IMG/VR virus record: IMGVR_UViG_643348547_000003 | Location: 1-28,525 of that record | DNA length: 28,525 nucleotides | Source of the DNA: a virus | Taxonomy: Duplodnaviria > Heunggongvirae > Uroviricota > Caudoviricetes | Direction: 5' to 3' (one strand) | Part shown: positions 1 through 12,288 of the stretch, piece by piece | Numbering within the stretch: position 1 is the stretch's first letter | Layout: every line of letters begins with the position of its first letter | Program-made: the position numbers and the translations under genes | The notes under the pieces: model-generated | What the model was told of the DNA's origin: nothing | The model's database searches: none | Seen by the model: only the letters and a program-made list of their open reading frames with translations

Positions 1-891
1 TCAGGCTGCCAGATCATCGTTTCCGATGGAAGCATAATAAGCTTTTTCTGCTTCTGCCGGAGGAGTATGGCCCAGCCTTTCCAGCAATCGTCGATTGTTA
101 TACCAGTCCACCCACGTGAGTGTGGCCAGTTCCACTTCTGCACGGTTTTTCCAGCTCTTACGGTGTATTACCTCCGCTTTGTAAAGACCATTGATGCTCT
201 CCGCCATCGCGTTGTCATACGAGTCGCCTGTACTTCCTGTTGATGCCAGTAATCCGGCTTCCTTAAGCCGCTGTGTGTAGGCCAGCGATACATACTGAGA
301 ACCTTTATCACTGTGATGGACCGTGCCGGACGGTCGACGGGCCCATAACGCCTGCTCCAGTGCATCCAGCACGAATGTCGTTTCCATGGACGATGAGACC
401 CGCCACCCCACGATGTATCCGGCAAACACATCAATGATGAACGCCACATAGACGAAGCCCCGCCATGTGCTGACGTAAGTAAAATCAGCCACCCACAGCT
501 GGTCAGGTCGTTCTGCCACGAACTGACGGTTTACGCGGTCGCCTGCGGCAACGGCTTTCCGGCTGATGGTCGTACGGACCTTTTTACCCCGGAGAACACC
601 GGCAAGTCCCATAACCGCCATGAGACGTGCCACAGTGCATCTGGCCACTCTGATACCTTCCCGTAACAACTGACGCCAGACTTTACGCACACCGTATACC
701 TTGTGATTTTCATCGTATACGCGCTGTATCTCTTTCTTCAGCCAGTCATCGCGCTGCGCACGGGCACTGCGTTTATCCGGATGATGTCGCTGTTGCTGAC
801 AGTGGTAATACGTTGACGGGGCAATATGCAGTTCGCTGCATAGCGGTCCGACCCCGTACTGCTCACGCAGCTTATCCAGCAGTGGCATCAT
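1..891 (-). CDS. IS3-family transposase OrfB (DDE catalytic subunit)
   Basis: 296 aa with an integrase-core-like region (WVADFTYV...HSDKGSQY...[15 protein letters not shown]) typical of DDE transposases of the IS3 family. Overlaps orfA by 4 nt. Confidence 0.85.
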
Positions 892-1214
892 TTTTTCCAG
901 AGGCGGTCGAACTCCGCCTTCGCAAAATAAGCGGAAGCCTGGCGAAGGATATCGTTACTGCGGCGCAGTTCACGATTTTCACGTTCCAGCTCTTTCAGAC
1001 GCTGACGTTCAGCGGTGGTGAGCCCTCCATCACCGCCCCCGGTATCCCGCTCATGCTGGCGAACCCAGACACGCAGAGTCTCCGGCGTACAGCCAATCTT
1101 TGGAGCAATGGAACAAATTGTCGCCCATTGTGAGTCATATTCGCTCTGACTTTCCAGAACCATACGGACTGCCCGTTGACGGACTTCGGGGGAAAAACGA
1201 GTATTTTTAGTCAT
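888..1214 (-). CDS. IS3-family transposase OrfA (HTH DNA-binding subunit)
   Basis: 108 aa, [19 protein letters not shown]..., with a C-terminal leucine-zipper-like region ([26 protein letters not shown]) typical of IS3 OrfA. Ends in an A-run overlapping the orfB start, consistent with a programmed -1 frameshift. Confidence 0.85.
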
Positions 1215-1268
1215 CCTGTTTACCTCTTTCTCAGGAAGTTTAGTCTCCAGGATTCCCGGGGCGGTTCA

Positions 1269-2180
1269 GATGCACTAAATTACTGGTATGAAAATTACTG
1301 TAAGGTGCGTCGTAAAACTCATGCTGTAACGCTTGGCAGATTTCGAAAGCATATCTTTCCCTATATCGGTCATTTGCCCGTAAATGACACTCACCTATAT
1401 GAATGGCTGGACTGTTTTGACCGAATTAAACGTAATGCACCAGTTATGGCGGCGTATGTTTTTTCTGACACTAAATTAGCTCTTCGTTTTTGTCGGGTAC
1501 GCCAGTACGCGACGTGTGATGCTTTAAAGGATTTGCGCATGAGTGATGTGGGGCAGATTGCAGGTAAGCGGGATCGGGTTCTGGATGAAGCCGAACTCGG
1601 CCAGCTCTGGAAGGCAATTTTTGTCGAGCCTGATTTAAAACTAATGTCTGAATACACGCGAAAAATGTTTGTGCTTTGTACAGTATTTGGATGTCGAATG
1701 AGTGAAGCCCGATTATCAGAATGGAGCGAATGGGATCTCGAAAGTTGGGTTTGGACTGTACCAAAAGATCACTCAAAAACTGGTGTTGAAATCGTCAGAC
1801 CAGTACCTGAAATTCTACGACAGTGGGTAACGGATGTTCACGAAGAGACAAAACATACTGGTTATGTGCTGGGAAGTCTGCGAATTAGAGAAAGCGTAAG
1901 CAAGATTGGGGGGAAAATCGGTAAACGTTTGGGCCATGAAAAACAATGGTCACTACACGACCTTAGAAGAACGCTATCTACTCATCTAAGTGATCTCGGT
2001 GTTGAATTTTATGTAGTAGAACAACTGTTAGGCCATGCGCTACCTGGCGTGGCAGGTGTTTACAACCGGAGTAAGTTTATGGCTAAAAAACTGGATGCTC
2101 TGGAACTCTGGACTACATATCTCAATAGCATCGCAGGTGCTGATTCAAAAGTGACGATCCTCAAACAAAAGGTTGGTTAA
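1269..2180 (+). pseudogene. int: P4-type tyrosine integrase, 5' end interrupted by the IS insertion
   Basis: The reading frame continues directly from the IS end at 1269 (DALNYWYENY...). The C-terminal catalytic region has tyrosine-recombinase motifs (HDLRRT, LGHA, VYNRS). The N-terminal portion must lie beyond the IS, outside the window; the ORF-track start at 1176 lies inside IS sequence and is an artefact. Confidence 0.8.
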
Positions 2181-2181
2181 C

Positions 2182-2409
2182 ATGAAAAAAATGGCAATTG
2201 TTGATAAAAAGGGTCTGGAGTACATTCCTAACATTGACCGAATGATCCGTGAGAAAGAATGTCGGGAGCTAACCACTCTTGCGAACAGCACACGCTGGAA
2301 GCTGGAGAAGGAAGGAAAATTTCCTAAGCGGATCAAGATTGGTTCCACTGCTGTTGCATATCGTCTTTCAGAAGTGCAGGCATGGATTCGAGGTGAGTGG
2401 GTAGTTTAA
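2182..2409 (+). CDS. alpA: AlpA-family (Phage_AlpA, HTH) regulator or excisionase-like protein
   Basis: About 75 aa with an AlpA-like pattern (TTLANSTRWKLEKEGKFPKRIKIGSTAVAYRLSEVQAWI). Sits immediately downstream of int, as in P4-like and PICI elements. The track start at 2173 is TTG; the ATG at 2182 is preferred. Confidence 0.7.
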   Translation: MKKMAIVDKKGLEYIPNIDRMIREKECRELTTLANSTRWKLEKEGKFPKRIKIGSTAVAYRLSEVQAWIRGEWVV

Positions 2410-2434
2410 ATTATCTCAGAATAAAATATTATGA

Positions 2435-2470
2435 ATTACTGATTTGAGAATTTGTACTCAAATCAGTAAT
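2435..2470. terminator. Perfect 14-bp inverted repeat hairpin between convergent genes (putative bidirectional terminator)
   Basis: ATTACTGATTTGAG (2435..2448), 8-nt loop, CTCAAATCAGTAAT (2457..2470). Lies between the alpA stop (2409) and the stop of the minus-strand gene (2479). Confidence 0.45.
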
Positions 2471-2478
2471 AACATTCT

Positions 2479-3015
2479 TTATAAGAGATTAAATCCAAAT
2501 AAAGAGTAATCATATACCGGGGTGCATTGCATTCCACTGAATATGCTGATGTTTTTTTCTGTTTCTATCCTTTTTTCAATAAGTTGTTGTATATTTTTAC
2601 AGTACAATTTGTGTGTGATGTTATTATCGTAAGCCTGATATAGCAACGTCAATGTTGACGCTAGGAAACATACAGATAAAATTAAAATAATATATGCAGT
2701 TTTTTTATTTTTTGTCCATGATCTATTTGTTTGTGAAATATAAAGAATTCTGAGGTGGATAATGGTGAGAGACAATAGCAGGCCACTCAATAAAATAAGT
2801 ATTGGGTTTGCGTATTTTATTAATGGTTGAGAGCAAAAAACTATTATAGCTCCTGTGACTGCGTATGAGAAAAAGGAGTAATTAAACTTCTTACTCCTTC
2901 TCTCAAGTATTTTAATTTCATCTTGTGTGGGGGTTTTAGATGCCTCTAATATAAGTTTATTGAATGTTTCTGTTATCTTGTTTTTTGTGTTTGTGGCTAT
3001 TTTTTTTAGATTCAT
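2479..3015 (-). CDS. Hypothetical small membrane protein (about 3 predicted TM helices) in an AT-rich cargo segment
   Basis: 178-aa ORF in a strongly AT-rich stretch (about 2410..3330). Hydrophilic N-terminus followed by three hydrophobic segments (AVTGAIIVFCSQPLI, ILILLSGLLLSLTIIHL, AYIILILSVCFLASTLTLL). No family recognised. Confidence 0.6.
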   Translation of the reverse strand: MNLKKIATNTKNKITETFNKLILEASKTPTQDEIKILERRSKKFNYSFFSYAVTGAIIVFCSQPLIKYANPILILLSGLLLSLTIIHLRILYISQTNRSWTKNKKTAYIILILSVCFLASTLTLLYQAYDNNITHKLYCKNIQQLIEKRIETEKNISIFSGMQCTPVYDYSLFGFNLL

Positions 3016-3365
3016 AGCATTCTAACTCCCTTAACTTATTTATTACTTTCTCTTTATGATAAGAGAGGGGAATGACTTGGTAAAGTGATTTGTCATTAAT
3101 AATGATAATCCTTGCGATAAATATTTCTGCAAGTTATTTATCTGTTTGTTGCTATCTTGTTAAGCGTTGGGTGTGGTTTATATTTGGAGCGACTTTATTT
3201 AATCGTGATTTTATGGATTTATATTTATATCCTGTAAGATAAGCGCATGTTAGTTTAGGAGTAGTGTCAGATAAAATTATTCGGAGTAGAACTACCTTTT
3301 CTGTTTATTGCCAGTATTTACATAGCAATGCGCCGTAGTTACTCACATCACGGCGCTGATACTAA

Positions 3366-3668
3366 TTATTCAGATTCTTTGGCTTTACGCCGCTGGAGTT
3401 CTTCACGAGCGACGGCTACGAGTTGCCCGATTTCCTCCGCTGCCTTGATGCCGATTTGTTCGACCTTAGCTAAGGCATCCAGTGAAGACACGAGGGGATT
3501 TTCTCCGCTTCCTTCTGCCTGGCGGCGGGCGATCTCACCGCGCATGGCGGTTACTATGAATCCGGCGTTGCTTTCGCCGTCCAGTTTTACGGATTCCATG
3601 CCCTCCATAACATCGTGGGGAACCCTGATCGTTGTCATTTGCGATTTTGCATTTTTGTATACAGACAT
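3366..3668 (-). CDS. Putative ribbon-helix-helix (Arc/CopG-like) transcriptional regulator
   Basis: 100 aa. The N-terminal segment TTIRVPHDVMEGMESVKLDGESNAGFIVTAMRGEI fits a beta-strand plus two-helix RHH pattern. Transcribed divergently from the replication-side genes, with an operator-like repeat array in between. Confidence 0.55.
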   Translation of the reverse strand: MSVYKNAKSQMTTIRVPHDVMEGMESVKLDGESNAGFIVTAMRGEIARRQAEGSGENPLVSSLDALAKVEQIGIKAAEEIGQLVAVAREELQRRKAKESE

Positions 3669-3688
3669 AGTTAATCACCAATTTGTTA

Positions 3689-3790
3689 TGTGTATATCAC
3701 TATACACAAAAGTGAGATATAAAAACACTTGCAATGTATATCACCACAATATAATGTATATCTCACATTATGGTCGCTATGTATCTCACA
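3689..3790. promoter_or_regulatory. Divergent promoter/operator region with repeated TGTATATC(T)CAC motifs
   Basis: Palindrome TGTGTATA-TCAC-TATACACA at 3689..3708. Related motif copies at 3712..3721 (reverse orientation), 3734..3744, 3754..3767 and 3779..3790. Located between the divergent genes 3366..3668 (minus) and 3877..4242 (plus). Confidence 0.5.
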
Positions 3791-3876
3791 ATGATCGATT
3801 CATAAAAACGACGAAACCCGGCAGTGCGCGAACACTAACCGGGCTTCTAACCAAACCGTTAAACGAGGTAACTATT

Positions 3877-4242
3877 ATGGCTGGAACACAGCATACCCAA
3901 ACTCACCCTAAATTTATATACATCTTTCTGGCGCTACATCGCGATCGCATAGCAGATGGAGCAACTACGGTACATGTAGCCGCTGACACGCTGGTTGATG
4001 CCCGCAAGATGGTTAAGGAGATGGGCTATACTGCGGCTTTCTGGAAAGGGCGGGAAGAAAACACGCTGTTTATTCAGAAATGTGAAAACAATTTCCTCTG
4101 GCGTTTTATCGCCCTGAGTACGACACAACCGCGCGTGATTACCATCGAGGCCACCAGCGAACAGGAAGCCCGCCAGCAATCCCCAACTGGCTGCGTGATG
4201 ATATTCGCCGCCCGTATTCGTCAGGAGGTGTGCCATGAATGA
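3877..4242 (+). CDS. Hypothetical protein (first gene of the rightward operon)
   Basis: 121 aa, ATG at 3877 preceded by GAGG. This is the 3' portion of the long track ORF 3328..4242, whose upstream part is antisense to the RHH gene. No family assigned. Confidence 0.6.
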   Translation: MAGTQHTQTHPKFIYIFLALHRDRIADGATTVHVAADTLVDARKMVKEMGYTAAFWKGREENTLFIQKCENNFLWRFIALSTTQPRVITIEATSEQEARQQSPTGCVMIFAARIRQEVCHE

Positions 4243-4459
4243 TCTTTATTTTAAAGTGCTGACACATGCTGAAAACGCGCTCGTTTGTGGCAAAAATATG
4301 CGAGAAATCTTATCAACCTGGCTTGATGGGACAACAAATGCGGAACACGATGAACGGGATGCTAATTTAGCTGGAGCGTTAATTACGTTACTTGATCCTG
4401 TCATCAAAGAGCTGGATGAAGCTATAAAAATACACGACCAGAGCTATACCGAAGAATAA
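4235..4459 (+). CDS. Hypothetical protein
   Basis: 74 aa. Start overlaps the upstream stop; AGGAGG six nt upstream of the ATG. Confidence 0.5.
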   Translation: MNDLYFKVLTHAENALVCGKNMREILSTWLDGTTNAEHDERDANLAGALITLLDPVIKELDEAIKIHDQSYTEE

Positions 4460-4461
4460 AA

Positions 4462-4749
4462 ATGAAAAATAAATTTTCTGGCTTTATTGCCAGCGGTCAA
4501 GCTCATTCAAAAATCAGCCTTGGGGATATTTTCAAAGATAGCTATGGCTATCGGGTAAAGATTATTTCGGTTGATGATCGCCGTGTCTCTTATTTGCGTG
4601 ATGGTTATGATTTTGAATGTGTTATGCCGCGTCAGCAGTTCGAAAGAGATTTCATTCTGGTAAAAAATTGCAAGACAGATAATCAGAGGCGTGCCGCAGG
4701 CTATATCCGCAAAATTCGGGCAATGTTAGTTGCCGGAGGTAATAAATGA
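4462..4749 (+). CDS. Hypothetical small protein (possibly DUF4222-like; uncertain)
   Basis: 95 aa, tightly packed in the operon. The segment YRVKIISVDDRRVSYLRDGYDFECVMPRQQFERDFILV resembles what I recall of small conserved satellite/prophage proteins, but no search was run. Confidence 0.5.
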   Translation: MKNKFSGFIASGQAHSKISLGDIFKDSYGYRVKIISVDDRRVSYLRDGYDFECVMPRQQFERDFILVKNCKTDNQRRAAGYIRKIRAMLVAGGNK

Positions 4750-4928
4750 AACGTGCTCCGAACTTAAAATACCAACCGCGCGACAAAATGACAGAAGTCA
4801 TCATTTTTGCTGGCAGTGATGCCTAGAGCCATGCAAAAGAATGGAATGAATGGGCGGGTAAGCATATTGCAGCAGATGATACACCACCAGTAATTCTGGG
4901 TACGGAACAACTGGAAAACCTGGATGAT

Positions 4929-6566
4929 ATGCAAATTATCGATGAAGGCCGTCATTATGTGCGTGTTTATCGTGCCGGAAAGATTGCAGAGAAAAATCTG
5001 ACGAAGGTTGCGACATTACTTGCTATTGCAGGCGTAAAGGAAGCACGTTGTTACCGTAGCTTTGTTGATCGAGAGCCTGAAGACTGGACTCCGCGCCTTG
5101 TCGGCCTAAAAGCTGAAGCGGAGCATGGGGAAAGTCTGGTGATTGAACTGCCAGTGAAGAAGGCTGAGCGCAAAAATGACGAGCGTGCTTCATCTTTGGC
5201 GTTGAATCAGATGGGGGCCAGCCAGCGCGGTGAAGTTCTCCTTGCACATTACGGCGGCGAACTGGCAATCAATGCCGACTCTGACACCGTTCATCATTAC
5301 AACGGCGTTGTATGGGAGCCGGTTCAGGATAAAGAGTTACAGCGTGCTATGGCGCAGATTTTCATTGATGCGGAGATCAGCTATTCGCAGAACGCTATTA
5401 AATCGGCGGTAGATACCATGAAGTTAAGTTTGCCTGTAATGGGGAATACAGCCCGTAACCTGATTGGATTCAGTAACGGGGTATTTGATACCAGAACTGG
5501 TAATTTTCGGGAGCATAACAAAAACGACTGGTTGTTAATTGCCAGTGAATTACCTTTCAGCCCACCAGCAGAGGGGGAAACGCTGGCAACACATGCGCCG
5601 AATTTCTGGAAGTGGTTGCGCCGTTCGGTGGCTGAGAATGACCGCAAGGCAGATCGCGTACTGGCGGCATTATTCATGGTGCTGGCGAACCGGTACGACT
5701 GGCAGTTATTCATTGAGGTAACAGGGCCGGGGGGAAGTGGTAAAAGTGTGATGGCGGAGATTTGCACCATGCTGGCGGGTAAGGCTAATACAGTATCAGC
5801 AAGCATGAAGGCGCTGGAAGATGCAAGGGAACGTGCGTTAGTGGTTGGCTTTTCGCTGATTATCATGCCGGATATGACCCGCTACGCTGGTGATGGGGCA
5901 GGGATTAAGGCCATTACAGGCGGTGACAAGGTGGCAATTGACCCGAAACACAAAGCCCCCTATTCAACGCGTATTCCGGCAGTAGTGCTGGCGGTTAACA
6001 ATAACGCCATGTCATTCAGTGACCGCAGCGGGGGGATCTCACGTCGTCGGGTGATATTCAATTTTTCGGAAGTTGTACCGGAGAACGAACGCGATTCGAT
6101 GCTGGCGGAAAAAATAGAAGGTGAGCTGGCGGTAGTGATTCGTCATCTGCTTACAAGGTTTGCTGATCAGGACGAAGCCAGACGCCTGTTATATGAGCAG
6201 CAGAAATCTGAAGAAGCACTGGCGATAAAGCGAGAGGGGGATTCGCTGGTGGACTTCTGCGGTTATCTCATGGCATCGGTAATGTGTGATGGCCTGTTAG
6301 TGGGTAATGCTGAAATTGTGCCATTCAGCCCACGCAGGTATCTCTATCATGCCTATCTGGCTTATATGAGGGCACATGGGTTTGGTAAACCTGTAACACT
6401 GACGCGCTTCGGTAAAGATATGCCGGGGGCAATGGCGGAATATGGCAGGGAGTATATGAAACGGAAAACGAAGCACGGTTTGCGTTCAAACGTGACCCTG
6501 ACGGAGGAATCAGAAGACTGGATGCCATCATGTGTATCGGTCACTAATGACGATAGCAAAAATTAA
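4929..6566 (+). CDS. Replication protein, P4 alpha C-terminal / D5-like SF3 helicase-NTPase family
   Basis: 545 aa. Walker A motif VTGPGGSGKSV, Walker B-like LIIMPDMT, and a D5_N-like region (VVWEPVQDKELQRAMAQIFID). No obvious toprim primase domain. Immediately followed by an iteron array. Confidence 0.8.
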   Translation: MQIIDEGRHYVRVYRAGKIAEKNLTKVATLLAIAGVKEARCYRSFVDREPEDWTPRLVGLKAEAEHGESLVIELPVKKAERKNDERASSLALNQMGASQRGEVLLAHYGGELAINADSDTVHHYNGVVWEPVQDKELQRAMAQIFIDAEISYSQNAIKSAVDTMKLSLPVMGNTARNLIGFSNGVFDTRTGNFREHNKNDWLLIASELPFSPPAEGETLATHAPNFWKWLRRSVAENDRKADRVLAALFMVLANRYDWQLFIEVTGPGGSGKSVMAEICTMLAGKANTVSASMKALEDARERALVVGFSLIIMPDMTRYAGDGAGIKAITGGDKVAIDPKHKAPYSTRIPAVVLAVNNNAMSFSDRSGGISRRRVIFNFSEVVPENERDSMLAEKIEGELAVVIRHLLTRFADQDEARRLLYEQQKSEEALAIKREGDSLVDFCGYLMASVMCDGLLVGNAEIVPFSPRRYLYHAYLAYMRAHGFGKPVTLTRFGKDMPGAMAEYGREYMKRKTKHGLRSNVTLTEESEDWMPSCVSVTNDDSKN

Positions 6567-6580
6567 ACTTATGGAATAAC

Positions 6581-6801
6581 TGTTCACCACTGTTCACCCT
6601 GTCATAAATATCTTTTATATCAGTATATTATAGGGTGAACAGTTATTTATGAACTGTTCACCAAACTATTCACTGTTCACCTTTTTGATTGTTTATTGAG
6701 CTTCAAGGGTGAACAGTGGTGAACAGTTGGTGAATAGTTTTTGTGAAACTGTTCACCCATTAACATTATGAATTAAAAGAGAAAATATCAAAAGGTGAAC
6801 A
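6581..6801. repeat. Iteron array (putative satellite replication origin): about 9 copies of TGTTCACC / GGTGAACA
   Basis: TGTTCACC at 6581, 6591, 6655, 6674 and 6750. Reverse-orientation GGTGAACA at 6634, 6708, 6718 and 6794. This octamer is the iteron I recall from the P4 ori and crr, bound by the alpha protein. Confidence 0.7.
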
Positions 6802-6853
6802 GGTGAAGGGTTAAAACGCAAAAATTTTAATTTACTGCTGTGAGATAAAGCCT

Positions 6854-7099
6854 ATGACAGCGAAGCACACAAAAAAATCACAATCGCACGCCCTTGATTT
6901 GACGGAACACTGGTTAAGGGTGTCGATAAAAATCATCGACCGCAACGCCGGGGAAGGATACGCGAAAGCACATCCCGAACTGATTAGCGCATTCATGACA
7001 ACGGCGGCTGCAAACTTTGCCACTCTGACCGAACGGGAGATTGCTGAAGCGGAGGAAGTGACAACAATCAATATTAAGTCCGGAGAGCAGGCAGCATGA
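6854..7099 (+). CDS. Hypothetical protein
   Basis: 81 aa. Stop overlaps the start of the SSB-like gene (ATGA). Weak ribosome-binding site. Confidence 0.45.
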   Translation: MTAKHTKKSQSHALDLTEHWLRVSIKIIDRNAGEGYAKAHPELISAFMTTAAANFATLTEREIAEAEEVTTINIKSGEQAA

Positions 7100-7545
7100 C
7101 GGCGCAAATATCAGTTTACGGGCGGTTGGTGGACGACCCGCAGACAAAACAGACCAGCAAGGGCACCCCCATGACGCTGGCGCGTATGGCGGTATCACTG
7201 CCCTGCAGTCAGTCGGATGACGGTCAGGCGACGATGTGGTTATCTGTCCTGGCGTTTGGCAGACAAGCCGACGCGCTGGCAAAGCATCACAAAGGCGAAC
7301 TCCTGAGCGTGGCGGGTAATATGCAGGTGAGCCAGTGGACTGGACAGAACGGTGAAACGCGGCAGGGCTGGCAGGTTATCGCAGACAGCGTAATCAGTGC
7401 GCGAACGGTGCGACCGGGCGGCAAAAAAGGTCAACAGGGTCAGGCTACTGACGCACTGAACAGAGCAAAACAACAGGCAGATCAGCAAGGAAGCCATCCA
7501 CCAGTGGGAGATAATGAGCAATGGGGAGATGATATTCCGTTTTAA
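7096..7545 (+). CDS. Single-stranded DNA-binding protein (SSB-like)
   Basis: 149 aa. N-terminal OB-fold-like region, a Gly/Gln-rich linker and a C-terminal acidic tail ending DDIPF, the hallmark of the bacterial SSB C-terminus. Confidence 0.7.
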   Translation: MTAQISVYGRLVDDPQTKQTSKGTPMTLARMAVSLPCSQSDDGQATMWLSVLAFGRQADALAKHHKGELLSVAGNMQVSQWTGQNGETRQGWQVIADSVISARTVRPGGKKGQQGQATDALNRAKQQADQQGSHPPVGDNEQWGDDIPF

Positions 7546-7563
7546 ATATTGCCAATAAAAAAG

Positions 7564-7588
7564 GCCGGAAAAAAATAAATTTTCCGGC
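7564..7588 (+). terminator. Stem-loop downstream of the SSB-like gene (weak terminator candidate)
   Basis: GCCGGAAAA (7564..7572), 7-nt loop, TTTTCCGGC (7580..7588). No clear 3' U-tract. Confidence 0.35.
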
Positions 7589-7762
7589 ATGCTACATAAA
7601 TCCCGACCAAAGGGAGTGAAGATATTAACACTAATTATCCGCGCTGGAGTTGTTATCCCAAAACTTTATACAACATTGCACTCGGTTGCATGTATTCGCA
7701 TGACAAATATCGGTGATAGCATATATCCACAATTATTTTTAATGAATGCAAAGAGGATGCGT

Positions 7763-8803
7763 ATGGTTGATTTATATTCGCCTACCCAGCTTGTACAGGT
7801 GGTTAATGCTGTAGATGTACAAAAACAACTAAATGCGTTGTTTACCAGTTTGTTTTTTACTCGCTCGGTAATGTTTGAATCGCGCGATATTATTCTTGAT
7901 ACAATCGACGATCCAAATATCCCAATTGCAGCGTTTTGTTCTCCTATGGTAGGTAGTAAAGTTTCACGTGACGAAGGGTACGAATCAAAAACAATTCGTC
8001 CAGGCTATATGAAGCCGAAAAGCAGCATTGATCCAAATAAGTTAGCTGTGCGCCCTGCTGGTGTATCACCTGAGCAATACAATGCTTTTGGAGCGCGTAA
8101 TATTAAAGTTAAACAGGCGATTGTAAATCAGGCTAAAGCTATTCGTGCACGTATTGAATGGTTTGCCGTTCAGGCAATCACAACGGGGAAAAATATCATT
8201 GAGGGCGATGGTATTGAACGTTATGAGCTGGACTGGAATATAAAACCACAAAATATCATCACTCAGTCTGGCGGTACTGAGTGGTCAGGTAAGGATAAAG
8301 AAACTTTTGATCCAAATGATGATATTGAGAGCTACGCAGAATTTAGTGAGGGCGTCACTAATATCATCATTATGGGCGGTAATGTATGGAAGAAATACCG
8401 TTCATTCAGAGCGATAAAAGAGGCTCTGGATACCCGTCGTGGTTCTAATTCCGAACTGGAAACGGCCCTTAAAGACCTTGGTGATTCGGTGAGTTTTAAA
8501 GGGTATATGGGCGATGTTGCGATTGTTGTATACAGCGGGCGTTATACCGACGAGGACGGAACTGAAAAACATTTCCTTGATCCTGATTTGATGGTGCTTG
8601 GCAATACGGCTCTTCAGGGGATTGTCGCCTATGGCGGTATTCAGGATCCGGAGCTAATCCGAATGGGGCTGACTAAAGCCGAACTTGCACCGAAAAACTA
8701 TATTGTGCCTGGTGATCCGGCTATTGAATATGTGCAGACACATTCAGCACCACAGCCAATACCGGCCCGCATCAATCGTTTTGTTACCGTTCGCATTGGC
8801 TAA
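7763..8803 (+). CDS. Major capsid protein, phage lambda gpE family (divergent homolog)
   Basis: 346 aa from the ATG at 7763 (AAGAGGA five nt upstream). Alignable along its length to lambda gpE, with shared motifs NIITQSGGTEWS, DTRRGSNSELETA and GDVAIVVYSG. The 5' extension of the track ORF (7589..7762) is probably untranslated. Confidence 0.85.
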   Translation: MVDLYSPTQLVQVVNAVDVQKQLNALFTSLFFTRSVMFESRDIILDTIDDPNIPIAAFCSPMVGSKVSRDEGYESKTIRPGYMKPKSSIDPNKLAVRPAGVSPEQYNAFGARNIKVKQAIVNQAKAIRARIEWFAVQAITTGKNIIEGDGIERYELDWNIKPQNIITQSGGTEWSGKDKETFDPNDDIESYAEFSEGVTNIIIMGGNVWKKYRSFRAIKEALDTRRGSNSELETALKDLGDSVSFKGYMGDVAIVVYSGRYTDEDGTEKHFLDPDLMVLGNTALQGIVAYGGIQDPELIRMGLTKAELAPKNYIVPGDPAIEYVQTHSAPQPIPARINRFVTVRIG

Positions 8804-8812
8804 GGGGGAGCA

Positions 8813-9154
8813 ATGGCTACTCATTACACTGAACTCATGGCTGGCACTGAAGCACTGGTGACTACGCTGGGGATATTTTCAGCTAATAAAGGGGTAATTC
8901 CTGCATTTACGCCACTGATGCAGGAAGATGCAACAGGTGCACTGGTGGTATGGGATGGTTCGAGCGTAGGTAAAGCGGTTTATGTTTCCGCTGTACAAAT
9001 CGACACCGCGAAAAAAACACAGGCTCAGGTCTATAAGACAGGTGTCTTAAATGTTGATGCTCTGAACTGGCCTGAGTCTGTAAAAGAACTGTCAGTAAAG
9101 ATTGCAGCGTTTGTTGGCTCAGGTATTTCTGTTCAGCCGCTGGCTCGTGTGTAA
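8813..9154 (+). CDS. Head decoration protein, lambda gpD-like
   Basis: 113 aa. TPLMQEDATGALVVWDGSSVG and YKTGVLNVDALNWPE...AAFVGSGISV parallel lambda gpD. Lies downstream of the E-like gene, the reverse of the lambda D then E order. Confidence 0.75.
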   Translation: MATHYTELMAGTEALVTTLGIFSANKGVIPAFTPLMQEDATGALVVWDGSSVGKAVYVSAVQIDTAKKTQAQVYKTGVLNVDALNWPESVKELSVKIAAFVGSGISVQPLARV

Positions 9155-9165
9155 AGGGGGATACA

Positions 9166-9549
9166 ATGCAGAATGATTACAATGACCTTAAGCCACTTGC
9201 CGAAATGATGTACCCGAATCCAGCTGTAGAGGAATTAAAAGCTATCGCTGACAAAATGTGTTTAAGCGAGCGCCTTGTTGATATGAATCAGGTGATGGAA
9301 ATTACAACCCTGAGTCGGCGTACACTGCTAAACCTTGAGGCTAGTGGAGAGTTCCCGGAGCGTGTGCAGGTTACGGAAGGGCGTAAGGCCTGGTATTTAA
9401 GTGAAGTGATCGACTGGATAAATAATATTCCTCGCGCTTCTGAATATTGCCGCGTACCTGTCCCAAAAAAGCCAGATGCGGCGCTATGCCTCAAGATTGA
9501 GCGTGTACGCCGCAATGCACGGGATGGTCGCTATAAGCTGATTGGTTGA
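9166..9549 (+). CDS. AlpA-family HTH regulator with an N-terminal extension
   Basis: 127 aa. Core MEITTLSRRTLLNLEASGEFPERVQVTEGRKAWYLSEVIDWI matches the AlpA/HTH_17 pattern. Second AlpA-like gene in the island. Confidence 0.65.
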   Translation: MQNDYNDLKPLAEMMYPNPAVEELKAIADKMCLSERLVDMNQVMEITTLSRRTLLNLEASGEFPERVQVTEGRKAWYLSEVIDWINNIPRASEYCRVPVPKKPDAALCLKIERVRRNARDGRYKLIG

Positions 9550-9557
9550 TGAAATTA

Positions 9558-9581
9558 GGGCCCGCTCTGGCTGGCGGGTCC
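9558..9581 (+). terminator. GC-rich stem-loop after the second AlpA-like gene
   Basis: GGGCCCGC, 8-nt loop, GCGGGTCC, followed by TTTCC. Imperfect stem and short U-tract. Confidence 0.3.
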
Positions 9582-9713
9582 TTTCCGGCGATCTGACAGG
9601 CTACGGGGCGTCAGGCGCGCAGTTTTTTGCTATTTGTGAAAATTTTCCTGTTTAAGGCGTTTCCGTTCTTCTTCGCCGTAACTTAATGTTTTTATTAAAA
9701 ACACCCCCTAAAA

Positions 9714-9770
9714 AGAAAGGAAACGACAGGTGCTAAAAACAGGCTTTTTGGCCTCTGTCGTTTCCTTTCT
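9714..9770. other. Long perfect 16-bp inverted repeat (structured RNA or bidirectional terminator) in a roughly 600-bp non-coding spacer
   Basis: AGAAAGGAAACGACAG (9714..9729), 25-nt loop with an inner mini-hairpin, CTGTCGTTTCCTTTCT (9755..9770). Lies between convergent genes. Confidence 0.4.
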
Positions 9771-10147
9771 CTGGTTTTGTTGCCATCCGTCGCGGTCTAT
9801 CACCAGAAAAAATCTTATCCCTGAGTTGAATCAGGCCCTATTCAGAAGCGGTCAATAACGCGCCGCTAGCTTCACTTCATAGTTATGGCCTACTTCTGCG
9901 CCATTGCAATTGCTTTATGCGCCTTGATGGTGGAATATAGAGCAAGCAGTTTGCGAATAACAAAGTTTCATATGTTTTTTGCTGTGTGGCTAGACAACTT
10001 TACAGCAGAGTTTTGTGTCAGTTCTTTATGTGTGCAAGCAAGCTTGAGGGGGAATTACTTCTGGCTGCATCTTTGCTTAAGAACAGCAATAATTTAATCA
10101 TAAGGAAATGTATATAAGCCTGATTAAATTTCAGGCTTATTGAAATG

Positions 10148-11290
10148 TTAACTCCTTATTAGAGAGTAAATTCCATCCTCTTTAAGGAAGTCTATTACTT
10201 CAAAGAATGAGATAAAGAATTCCCAAGAACCAAAAGCATATGCATGAATTTCGTAAGGTGCAAAATGGAATCTAAATCCATCACTATTTATTGTGAACGA
10301 GTCTAAGTTACTATCCATGATACCCGTTGCAAACGTACTAATGTCGTCCTCACTTGGTTTTTCACCAGTTTTCTCCCAAAATTCACGAGCTGATTCAGAG
10401 ATTATTTTTTGTTTTATCTTATTAATCGCTTCTTGCTCTTTCCCTTCGGTAAATACATCCCATAAACTAAATTTGTATGCGTAGTCATCCTTGGTTATTA
10501 CGAAATTACTAGTTTCAAAATGACTGTTAGGGTGTGCTGCTCCCGCACCATACCAATGTACGGAATGAAGGATGCTCATAACATTTTCGTTACAGTATGA
10601 GATGTTATAACTTTCATTATAGGAACTAGTGTAAGTGTGTTTATATTCTTCATCCCAATATGGTGTTCCTGGCCATAGTGATGTGCGTTCAGAAAAAATA
10701 TGTAAAGCCGCTTTTCCTGAAAAGTAATCACTAATGAGTTTTGCTGATTTCGGTAATGTATGGCTTTCAATTCTTGGATATGCTATTTCAATTTCATGCC
10801 CTGGGATCTTGTTATATTCTTCCTTGAAAACCTCGCTGCTAAAGTTAAATGGCCCATAAGTGATACCTTGAGATATTTCAAGTTTTTGTTGCGATGCTGC
10901 TAATCTTAAAGATCTAGATAAAATGTCCCAACCATCATTTCTCTTAAAATCAATGAATTGGAGCTTGCTTGATATGTAGGCGGGTACTTCGCAATCATCA
11001 ATAAGTAATGGTATCACGAACACATCATCTGGTTTGTAATACTTTAGTTTATCAATGGCGTCATTTATTTCGCGGCGAATATAACCATTTTTCTGAGTGC
11101 TCACTTTGCTAAGGATAAGGATTATCAAGTTTGAATTAGCGAAGTTTTTTTGGATTTCATAATCCCAGTTTACGCCAGCGGGTATATCTTTTACATCCAT
11201 CCAAGGGGAATATCCTCCACTTTTTAGCCTTTCATAGATTTCTTCAGTTATCGTTTCATCTTCTTTTGCATGAGCAAGAAAAATTTTCAT
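10148..11290 (-). CDS. TIR-domain protein with a C-terminal DUF3298/RsiV-like domain (candidate antiphage effector)
   Basis: 380 aa in an AT-rich segment. The N-terminal 140 aa or so carry TIR-like hallmarks (KIFLAHAKEDE...W.D...I..G......I.ILSKVS...NGYIRREI). The C-terminal region contains HWYGAGAAHPNSHFETSNF...LWDVF, resembling the Y-x-GGAHG signature of DUF3298. SD-like AAGGA upstream of the start. No partner gene adjacent. Confidence 0.75.
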   Translation of the reverse strand: MKIFLAHAKEDETITEEIYERLKSGGYSPWMDVKDIPAGVNWDYEIQKNFANSNLIILILSKVSTQKNGYIRREINDAIDKLKYYKPDDVFVIPLLIDDCEVPAYISSKLQFIDFKRNDGWDILSRSLRLAASQQKLEISQGITYGPFNFSSEVFKEEYNKIPGHEIEIAYPRIESHTLPKSAKLISDYFSGKAALHIFSERTSLWPGTPYWDEEYKHTYTSSYNESYNISYCNENVMSILHSVHWYGAGAAHPNSHFETSNFVITKDDYAYKFSLWDVFTEGKEQEAINKIKQKIISESAREFWEKTGEKPSEDDISTFATGIMDSNLDSFTINSDGFRFHFAPYEIHAYAFGSWEFFISFFEVIDFLKEDGIYSLIRS

Positions 11291-11499
11291 TGAATATTCC
11301 TTTATAATTTAACTAATTAAGTGAAGGAGGCTTTACTTGGCTGTGTTAGAAAAAATTCGGTTTGTTTTTTGTACGATGCCAAGAAGGCTTTTCCCTAACC
11401 ATGTATTGCAGCATGTATTGCTACGTAATTCTGCACCCTCTCATTTATAAAATAAATCTCTGTTAAATCAAGTATCTTTTTTCTATTTGACTCATGTAA

Positions 11500-12288
11500 C
11501 CCAAGCATGAGGTGAATCCGCAGATGACCCTGCGTCGCCTGCCGGATGAAGATCCGCAGAATCTGGCGGACCCGGCTTACCGCCGCCGTCGCATCATCAT
11601 GCAGAACATGCGTGACGAAGAGCTGGCCATTGCTCAGGTCGAAGAGATGCAGGCCGTTTCTGCCGTGCTTAAGGGCAAATACACCATGACCGGTGAAGCC
11701 TTCGATCCGGTTGAGGTGGATATGGGCCGCAGTGCGGCGAATAACATCACGCAGTCCGGCGGCACGGAGTGGAGCAAGCGTGACAAGTCCACGTATGACC
11801 CGACCGACGATATCGAAGCCTACGCGCTGAACGCCAGCGGTGTGGTGAATATCATCGTGTTTGATCCGAAAGGCTGGGCGCTGTTCCGTTCCTTCAAAGC
11901 CGTCAAGGAGAAGCTGGATACCCGTCGTGGCTCTAATTCCGAGCTGGAGACAGCGGTGAAAGACCTGGGTAAAGCGGTGTCCTATAAGGGGATGTATGGC
12001 GATGTTGCCATCGTCGTGTATTCCGGACAGTACGTGGAAAACGGCGTCAAAAAGAACTTCCTGCCGGACAACACGATGGTGCTGGGGAACACTCAGGCAC
12101 GCGGTCTGCGTACCTATGGCTGTATTCAGGATGCGGACGCACAGCGCGAAGGCATTAACGCCTCTGCCCGTTACCCGAAAAACTGGGTGACCACCGGCGA
12201 TCCGGCGCGTGAGTTCACCATGATTCAGTCAGCACCGCTGATGCTGCTGGCTGACCCTGATGAGTTCGTGTCCGTACAACTGGCGTAA
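11500..12288 (+). pseudogene. E: Lambda major capsid protein E, 5'-truncated fragment (about C-terminal 260 aa)
   Basis: Translation PKHEVNPQMTLRRLPDEDPQNLADPAYRRRRIIMQNMRDEE... to ...DPDEFVSVQLA matches my recollection of lambda gpE from about residue 80 to the end. An in-frame TAA sits immediately upstream (11497..11499) and the upstream sequence is unrelated. Confidence 0.85.

Follow-up and report, generated by a model that had tools for sequence, protein, structure and literature searches.

The immI region of phage P22 combines the repressors Mnt and Arc, the operators O_mnt and O_arc at the divergent promoters P_mnt and P_ant, and the antisense RNA sar, and is known from work of the Susskind and Sauer laboratories. 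Gram-negative phage-inducible chromosomal islands (PICIs) represent widespread satellites whose induction model rests on the activator AlpA, and their global repressor has been called 'unclear' (PMC6092414). Here, the IMG/VR record IMGVR_UViG_643348547_000003 (Caudoviricetes; positions 1 to 28,525, 28,525 nucleotides in total, referred to as the window) was analyzed at 3366–3895, where an island of this kind carries a leftward gene of the YlcI/YnfO family facing a rightward replication operon. This region probably forms a regulatory hub, in which a ribbon-helix-helix (RHH) repressor would act on five sites (S1–S5) over divergent promoters, together with an antisense RNA. Neither the helper-embedded PICI (HE-PICI) paper (PMC10111431) nor the founding PICI paper (PMC6092414) describes the leftward gene or its sites, and the module offers a repressor candidate that can be tested cheaply.

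The intergenic space measured 208 bp, between the minus-strand open reading frame (ORF) of the regulator (3366–3668) and the plus-strand ORF of the icd-like gene, which starts at 3877. ORFs and annotation agreed on the divergent layout (minus-strand regulator, plus-strand operon leading to the replication gene) that a first-pass annotation had proposed. The same annotation had placed a 20-bp palindrome and at least four related motif copies in a spacer of roughly 200 bp, and these were found at 3689–3789 by motif-based and motif-free counts. At 3689–3708, the inverted repeat reads TGTGTATA-TCAC-TATACACA with arms perfect over 8 bp (repeat search: arms of 11 nt, 91% complementarity, gap of 4 nt), and four more copies of TGTATATC(T)CAC are located at 3712–3723 (minus strand), 3735–3744, 3755–3766 and 3780–3789. 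Two details required correction: the inverted repeat is real, but its right arm is the conserved −10 block of the leftward promoter rather than a second half-site, and the sites occupy only 3689–3789 of the spacer, 3800–3876 being taken up by the antisense RNA with its terminator hairpin. The antisense RNA gene accounts for about 40% of the intergenic space.

Searching the window with the pattern TGTATATCNCAC at up to 2 mismatches gave 13 matches versus 6.1 ± 2.2 in shuffled sequences, none of 100 shuffles reaching 13; seven of the 13 fell within 3689–3791 (103 bp), where they partly overlap and correspond to 5 distinct sites. Because this pattern was derived from the same region, a self-repetition score that needs no motif was also computed, counting 9-mers on both strands in 120-bp windows with at most 1 mismatch. 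The segment 3681–3800 scored 40 compared with a mean of 2.9 (standard deviation 5.3) and ranked second in the 28.5 kb, outranked only by the iteron-rich segment 6541–6820 downstream of the primase gene.

The individual sites, each 10–12 bp long and 20–25 bp apart, were assigned as follows, with P_R denoting the predicted promoter of the rightward operon and P_L that of the regulator. S5 (3689–3700, TGTGTATATCAC) is the left arm of the 3689–3708 repeat and covers the predicted +1 of P_L as well as the end of its −10; S4 (3712–3723, minus strand, TTTATATCTCAC as read on that strand) covers the spacer and −35 region of P_L; S3 (3735–3744, plus strand, TGTATATCAC) lies inside the P_R spacer; S2 (3755–3766, plus strand, TGTATATCTCAC), the sole exact match to the pattern, lies over the −10 and +1 of P_R; and S1 (3780–3789, plus strand, TGTATCTCAC) belongs to the P_R leader, at about +15 to +25. 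As the spacing corresponds to about two helical turns, all five would face the same side of the DNA.

The regulator is a protein of 100 amino acids encoded on the minus strand (3366..3668). It matched NCBIfam NF041551 (YlcI/YnfO; DUF3950) with 70.5 bits over residues 8–49 (cutoff 30), which places it in this family, and an identical protein is annotated as YlcI/YnfO family in RefSeq; of 5426 complete E. coli genomes, 469 contained sequence similar to its gene. No function of the YlcI/YnfO family is reported in the literature. Structure models were calculated for the monomer only. The whole-protein AlphaFold2 model (mean predicted local distance difference test score 82) consists of the N-terminal part with two short helices and one long C-terminal helix (residues 58–99), which dominated fold searches performed with the complete model. 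When the N-terminal 55 residues were used, these modeled as an RHH domain (residues ~9–53), and RHH proteins made up the top 9 and 19 of the 21 best fold-search matches, omega and a CopG-family protein being among the best. The predicted model shows the beta-alpha-alpha fold of about 45 residues that characterizes the RHH superfamily, with a conserved turn D30-G-E-S-N34 (loop motif G31-E-S-N34) and a beta-strand S9–P17 in which S9, R15 and P17 are invariant and residues 11–14 are variable, these four forming the variation peak of the domain (1.6–2.2 bits); polar and hydrophobic residues alternate along the strand, as is usual for the superfamily. The modeling thus supports an RHH fold, and the earlier label 'RHH-like' for the minus-strand gene is borne out at the level of a predicted fold. 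Curated profile searches found no helix-turn-helix (HTH) family in the protein. Sequence and profile searches against the PDB gave no convincing hit; the best was a weak helix-hairpin-helix match to Hef (E = 0.0078, residues 45–86), which conflicts with the long helix of the AlphaFold2 model.

The base-contacting residues of Arc are Gln9, Asn11 and Arg13. In a strand-helix alignment with weak scores, T-I-R-V-P-H-D-V of the regulator fell into the same register as Arc F-N-L-R-W-P-R-E-V and Mnt F-N-F-R-M-P-M-E-V; in this register, regulator residues 11, 13 and 15 take the positions of Arc Gln9, Asn11 and Arg13. In E. coli K-12, the family member ylcI (L103, 4252–4834) adjoins cos and is divergent from nohD in the prophage DLP12. 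Upstream of K-12 ylcI, a Fur-box-like palindrome ATGATAATAATTATCAT and repeats GCATC(T/A)AC were noted, which were not used as evidence.

Co-variation of sites and protein was assessed on 92 related loci, five further loci retrieved via protein look-ups and EcCICFT073, with 16 representatives compared. The exact motif TGTATATC(N)CAC occurs only where the protein is near-identical and is absent from most orthologous islands. Such an absence had been named in the first-pass annotation as refuting a switch; it was not taken as a refutation here, because a repeat particular to the island stands at these positions in each case. In the 16 representatives, EcCICFT073 included, repeats lie at about −121, −98, −75, −52 and −30 from the ATG, with 3–5 detected per class, and the −30 position, that of S5, carries a class-specific site in every related island. 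Two elements are flanked by the repeats: a conserved TTGAC, directed toward the icd-like gene, and the block TTTTGTGTATA(C/G/A)T, conserved in most islands and directed toward the RHH gene.

Examples of class repeats are GTGATATACAC, GTGAAACACAC, TGAATCACA, GTGTAAG/CTTACAC, GTGTGCAT, TGGTATTCA, GTGTAAACA and GTGTGGCCCAC, of which GTGAAACACAC is the site of class B. Paired with the beta-strands of the adjacent proteins, they read: SQMTTIRVP with GTGATATACAC; SQLTTVRVP and SQLFTVRVP with GTGAAACACA(C/G); SQSLTARIP and SQSVTARIP with GTGTAAG / CTTACA; SKQISIRIP with TGAATCACA; SQIKNVR(V/I)P with GTGTG(C/T)AT; SQQLNARFP with TGGTATTCA; SQAIAARVP with GTGTAAACA; and SQALKARVP, of EcCICFT073, with GTGTGGCCCAC. 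The same residues 11 and 13 go along with related repeats even across genera, e.g. in E. coli and Xenorhabdus, and where the proteins of E. coli islands share ~90% identity overall and deviate in the strand, the repeats deviate as well. For the positionally defined S3 10-mer, the mean match was 24.25 among sites of the own locus versus 20.6 for other loci (permutation p ≤ 5e-5), and cross-locus site similarity correlated with beta-strand identity (Mantel r = 0.38, p = 0.004). AlpA was uncoupled from the sites, as AlpA identical to that of the window occurred with class-B operators and class-A operators with AlpA at 37–100% identity; the Icd-like, orf74 and DUF4222 products were likewise uncoupled from site class. 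For all five copies to change in concert, their reader must be specific to the locus, and the adjacent RHH protein is the sole co-varying candidate. In this comparison, it was the only neighboring gene product whose sequence changes with that of the sites, namely at residues 11–14.

Additional elements were seen between S1 and S2. In several non-E. coli islands (L007, L008, L010, L011, L013), a DnaA box that is perfect or nearly so, TGTGGATAA (reverse complement of TTATCCACA), stands there, about −105 to −95 relative to the start codon of the RHH gene. Other islands have an inverted repeat CCTTG-N7-9-CAAGG in its place, and the window has neither.

Predicted promoter elements coincide with the sites. 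The −10 of P_L (3699..3704, minus strand, TATAGT) lies inside the conserved block and reads TATAGT, TATACT or TATAAT in 11 of 13 representatives in the alignment. The −35 of P_R (3729..3734, plus strand) is TTGCAA in the window and a conserved anchor in 16/16 representatives, reading TTGAC(G/C/A/T) in most related islands and TTGAT(A/G) or TTGAAA in a few. Its −10 (3750..3757, plus strand) may be TATAAT (3750–3755, spacer of 15 bp) or TAATGT (3752–3757, spacer of 17 bp), the latter being in register with TAACAT of class-B loci. When two class-B loci were scanned with the promoter consensus, TTGACG-17-TAACAT was the sole promoter-like site, directed toward the icd-like gene, with S3 filling its spacer and S2 located just downstream of its −10; the same scan of a third related locus returned none. 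The overlap of S2/S3 and of S4/S5 with predicted promoter elements argues for repression of the replication operon together with negative autoregulation, a sign of regulation at P_R and P_L that would follow from the site geometry.

The remainder of the intergenic space encodes a SymR-like cis-antisense RNA of ~79 nt (3805..3883, minus strand), which starts 6–7 nt inside the icd-like coding sequence. Its 3′ hairpin (3847–3813) is followed by a U-run (3812–3800), and an anti-Shine-Dalgarno sequence CCUC (3868–3865) lies within the predicted 5′ stem-loop region. Rfam SymR (RF01809) reached 35.3 bits (E = 1.4e-4) at 3810–3882 of the minus strand, short of its gathering score of 61, and gave no match at E ≤ 1 to the copy in EcCICFT073. 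An alignment of 21 distinct islands yielded a 13-pair hairpin with 98.9% of cells paired and 5 pairs with compensatory changes; the hairpin exceeded all shuffles in covariation score, in the percentage of paired cells and in the number of cells with changes on both sides, and it exceeded all slid controls. Read on the minus strand, the alignment had 37 cells with G-U pairs, against 0 for the plus strand, and this strand bias, together with the covariation, shows that the hairpin belongs to an RNA transcribed from the minus strand.

A covariance model trained on the island sequences scored 81.5 bits in the window and 55–78 bits on four untrained islands. Applied to K-12 symR (L102), it gave 28.9 bits (E = 1.8e-4) at 1835–1917, compared with the annotated 1836–1912; since a model made only from PICIs finds symR at its annotated coordinates, the result suggests that chromosomal SymR and the satellite RNAs are one family. 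The geometry also corresponds, the Rfam match starting at +6 and the own model at +7 of the icd-like gene, and K-12 symR at +6 of symE. A promoter −10 was predicted for the antisense RNA at 3890..3895 (minus strand; TATGCT, TATGAT in other islands) within icd-like codons 5–7 and 7 nt upstream of the predicted start; its T3, A4 and T8 are invariant in the alignment although the overlapping Icd-like N-termini differ, and the strict promoter scan made no call there. Other immunity RNAs (Rfam C4, isrK and others) were considered for the identity of this RNA and none was detected; C4 and isrK gave no match at E ≤ 1 in 3300–4700, nor at the gathering score in the whole window. From its position and conservation, the antisense RNA is read as a brake on Icd-like translation. 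The covariance model also produced a weak full-length match on the operator array (3693–3776, minus strand; 22.4 bits, E = 0.005), which is probably due to the S2/S4 inverted repeat and was treated as chance.

The predicted fold, the site array, the co-variation, the promoter overlap and the strand-specific hairpin were computed; for binding, the sign of regulation, cooperativity and the lifting of repression, we infer the following course. An RHH dimer would insert its N-terminal beta-ribbon into the DNA major groove, where the invariant R15 and the variable residues 11 and 13 would read bases, by analogy with Arc. Dimers would fill S1–S5, probably cooperatively and possibly via the C-terminal helix. 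Occupancy of S3 in the P_R spacer and of S2 on its −10/+1 would shut off the replication operon from the icd-like gene to the primase, and S4 over the P_L spacer with S5 over +1 would provide negative autoregulation of the regulator. In addition, a constitutive antisense RNA of ~80 nt would pair with the icd-like Shine-Dalgarno sequence and AUG, block translation and, through polarity, dampen leak into the replication genes. How repression is relieved is a guess: read-through by AlpA-dependent or helper late transcription may be envisaged, or a helper-encoded antirepressor. Pseudomonas AlpA is a processive antiterminator (PMC7969949), and the helper late operon would be the other source of read-through (PMC10111431); relief by either kind of read-through is speculation. 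The repressor–operator switch of the first-pass annotation is favored by the RHH fold, the co-variation at residues 11–14 and the promoter overlap, while the analogy to P4 immunity drawn along with it proved only loose and Stl/Str is not the closest system.

Several findings weigh against a repressor hub of this kind. Genetics of EcCICFT073 revealed induction via the activator AlpA, with no repressor reported (PMC6092414), and experimental binding or repression has been reported for no YlcI/YnfO protein. Curated RHH profiles were not significant: Pfam returned only PSK_trans_fac (E = 0.019; 16.3 bits, cutoff 28.3), which matched weakly in 36/47 homologues as well (best E = 1e-3), no Arc or RHH_x Pfam model reached E ≤ 1, and hhalign against the Arc profile gave a probability of 5.9%. 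The Mantel correlation is modest, and site orientation patterns vary between classes. With the beta-strand codons only 30–80 bp from the sites, part of the co-variation comes from both being inherited together as a single recombination module. The strict sigma-70 scan found no promoter in the window's own intergenic region, where the P_R elements are too weak or too closely spaced for it, so that the promoters of the window were deduced from conservation and from the scans of related loci; P_L is, moreover, without a recognizable −35. Finally, the present copy of the island is degenerate, with an insertion sequence (IS) in int and a stop in the primase gene, and the switch may no longer matter here.

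The protein might instead bind the sites mainly as an activator or timing factor, with quiescence resulting from the absence of AlpA and from the antisense RNA; it could, for example, stimulate its own weak promoter, as Mnt does, or act on the antisense RNA. Promoters that depend on an activator or are regulated by competition typically have a good −10 without −35, as P_L does, the RNA layer is present irrespective of the protein, and control of Gram-negative PICIs by the activator AlpA is reported (PMC6092414). The placement of S3 in the P_R spacer, S2 over its −10/+1 and S5 over the +1 of P_L is nevertheless repressive, and we regard a mainly activating or timing role as unlikely. Similarly unlikely is that S1–S5 are read by another protein (AlpA, a helper-phage regulator or a host factor), which would leave the RHH protein as an antitoxin or accessory DNA-binding protein. 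AlpA is the sole regulator shown to act in EcCICFT073 (PMC6092414), the co-variation may partly reflect physical linkage, and a two-gene module is conceivable given the small Arg-rich ORF (57 or 84 aa) that follows the RHH gene in many islands. Against such a reader, AlpA and the three rightward products examined are all uncoupled from site class, the five sites vary together and in step with the residues whose counterparts touch bases in Arc-type proteins, and a host factor cannot account for a dozen or more site classes in one species. The downstream small ORF is absent in the window island, yet the sites are intact; the toxin–antitoxin reading was dropped on the same ground, as this ORF is not conserved there.

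Regularly phased repeats bound by RHH proteins such as omega and ParG are centromeres in some plasmids, and few stretches of the window are as repetitive as this phased array. That it consists of iterons or a centromere-like site (an origin, or partition via an omega/ParG-type RHH protein) in place of operators is nonetheless very improbable: the sites coincide with the −35/−10/+1 of two promoters, the island has no ParA-type gene, and a much denser, different repeat, GGTGAACAGT, occurs in at least 11 copies at 6578–6812, downstream of the primase gene, where origins of Gram-negative PICIs have been mapped (PMC10111431). On account of this second array, the origin/iteron reading of 3689–3789 was rejected.

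A repressor hub being the favored explanation, a wider proposal can be formulated, which we put forward as tentative and consider rather doubtful in its full extent. The YlcI/YnfO RHH protein would be the missing master repressor of Gram-negative PICIs, including EcCICFT073, and would form a two-layer lock on satellite replication with a SymR-related antisense RNA over the icd-like gene; its beta-strand residues 11 and 13, together with the five phased operators, would have diversified into a dozen or more 'immunity' specificities that are exchanged by intragenic recombination, and the helper would open the lock by an antirepressor or by AlpA-type antitermination read-through. If true, a function would be assigned to the uncharacterized YlcI/YnfO (DUF3950) family, and the chromosomal SymR antitoxin RNA and the satellite RNAs would belong to one RNA family. 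The locus hints at a family of antisense RNAs, akin to SymR, that would control the Icd-like genes of satellites, and the islands would provide a natural series of specificity variants for studying RHH–DNA recognition.

The rightward operon begins with the icd-like gene (3877..4242, plus strand; 121 aa, C-terminal Icd-like domain, NCBIfam NF033153 with 80.5 bits, cutoff 25) and continues on the same strand with orf74 (4235–4459), a DUF4222 gene (4462–4749) and a D5/P4-type primase-helicase gene (4746–6566), which has an internal stop in the present copy. An island in E. coli AR_0013 is 100% identical over 3300–3950. Its order is integrase, AlpA-type HTH protein, a hypothetical and the YlcI/YnfO protein (both leftward), followed by Icd-like, hypothetical, DUF4222, primase (pseudogene), hypothetical, single-stranded DNA-binding protein (SSB), major capsid, head decoration, HTH and TIR proteins, and it sits in the major capsid gene of a lambdoid prophage, with partial capsid genes on both sides. 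In the window, the island extends over ~1250–11400 and has its own capsid (7589–8803) and decoration (8813–9154) genes; 11512–12288 is the 3′ fragment of the interrupted lambda-E-like helper capsid gene. This configuration is the one described for helper-embedded PICIs of type 11capE (PMC10111431). With int-alpA, primase, origin and own capsid inside a capsid gene, the island is an EcCICFT073-like helper-embedded PICI, a known type. EcCICFT073 itself encodes a 59-aa YlcI/YnfO protein (C_RS30120), divergent from the Icd-like gene that heads its DUF4222–primase operon, and the order int, alpA, cargo and leftward RHH gene facing icd-like through primase is the same in the window, AR_0013 and EcCICFT073.

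Further features of the island were recorded. An IS3-family element (orfB 1–891, orfA 888–1214, minus strand; window 1–~1250) with an ALIL frameshift pseudoknot at 817–933 (120 bits) interrupts the integrase, which is intact in the AR_0013 copy. Codon 27 of the primase frame is a stop (...IIFAGSDA*SHAKE...), RefSeq calling the identical gene a pseudogene, and an internal ATG at 4929 could still yield a product of 545 aa. At 6578–6812, just downstream of the primase gene, the copies of GGTGAACAGT(T), at least 11, occur in both orientations and are unrelated to the operator motif; this array is presumably the PICI replication origin. Just past the RHH stop codon (3331–3357, minus strand), a hairpin GCGCCGTGATGTGAGTAACTACGGCGC followed by ATTGCTATG is kept in EcCICFT073 and other islands, where it precedes the small Arg-rich ORF of 57 or 84 aa; the window has AT-rich cargo instead (ATG directly followed by TAA). 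An AT-rich cargo gene at 2479–3015 (minus strand) encodes a predicted membrane protein of 178 aa that was assigned to no family, with only weak 2TM/DUF4231-type Pfam hints, and its place between alpA and the regulatory hub is likely an accessory or defence slot. A second AlpA-domain protein of 127 aa is encoded at 9166–9549, downstream of the island capsid and decoration genes, and the right end of the island (10148–11290, minus strand) holds a gene for a 380-aa TIR-domain protein with weak retron-TIR and Thoeris ThcB4 matches, a candidate for anti-phage cargo.

Compared with described systems, the locus shares with the Stl (Rpr) repressors of Staphylococcus aureus pathogenicity islands (SaPIs) and Gram-positive PICIs a divergent position between the int module and a rightward xis/replication operon that the repressor is proposed to silence (PMC6092414). 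SaPI Stl/Str resembles it in this position in the island alone: Stl-type repressors are larger HTH proteins relieved by helper-phage proteins, whereas the regulator here has 100 aa (59 aa in EcCICFT073) and a predicted RHH domain in place of a CI/XRE-like HTH domain, it has no Cro/Str-like partner, and AlpA-dependent activation exists in parallel. The RNA layer is like SymE–SymR of E. coli K-12, where a cis-antisense RNA of ~77–79 nt likewise runs from 6 nt inside the coding sequence across AUG and Shine-Dalgarno sequence (PMC1891008). SymR and the island RNA match each other's models reciprocally (Rfam 35.3 bits, own model 28.9 bits); unlike in SymE–SymR, the target is Icd-like rather than the AbrB-fold SymE, and the context is not LexA-controlled. 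Immunity RNAs in this zone of some PICIs were noted by the HE-PICI authors (PMC10111431). As in P1 immI (C4 RNA – icd – ant) and with the P4 CI RNA, an icd-type gene opens an operon that would be gated by a small RNA at the leader or ribosome-binding site. C4 and CI, however, arise by processing of the sense transcript, with target sites located upstream or downstream, the island RNA is on the opposite strand, and P1 and P4 have no RHH repressor at the corresponding position. The likeness to P4 immunity suggested earlier therefore holds in that an RNA layer is present, but this RNA is cis-antisense and SymR-like, with no C4/CI-type RNA at E ≤ 1. Omega (pSM19035) and CopG-type repressors are RHH dimers whose cooperative binding is directed at promoter-overlapping arrays of short repeats of either orientation, as would be expected here; the omega repeats are contiguous 7-mers, in contrast to the 10–12-bp sites about two helical turns apart.

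Functionally, and judged by analogy, the closest system is P22 immI and not Stl/Str. The two differ in that no significant sequence-profile match to Arc or Mnt was obtained, in that five phased sites stand here versus one operator of 17–21 bp each in P22, and in that the carrier is a satellite island, not a phage, with an operon of Icd-like and replication genes instead of an antirepressor and an RNA that is SymR-like, not sar. As in P22 immI, a small leftward gene for an RHH protein, the putative repressor, accompanies back-to-back divergent promoters with candidate operators over their core elements; as in Mnt, the N-terminal RHH domain is followed, according to the model, by a C-terminal helical part, which in Mnt is the oligomerization domain; the R-x-P-x-E/D-V strand-helix signature of Arc and Mnt is in register; and, as with sar, a short cis-antisense RNA overlaps a ribosome-binding site within the rightward operon. 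The YlcI/YnfO regulator is in this respect a candidate for a new family in a known role.

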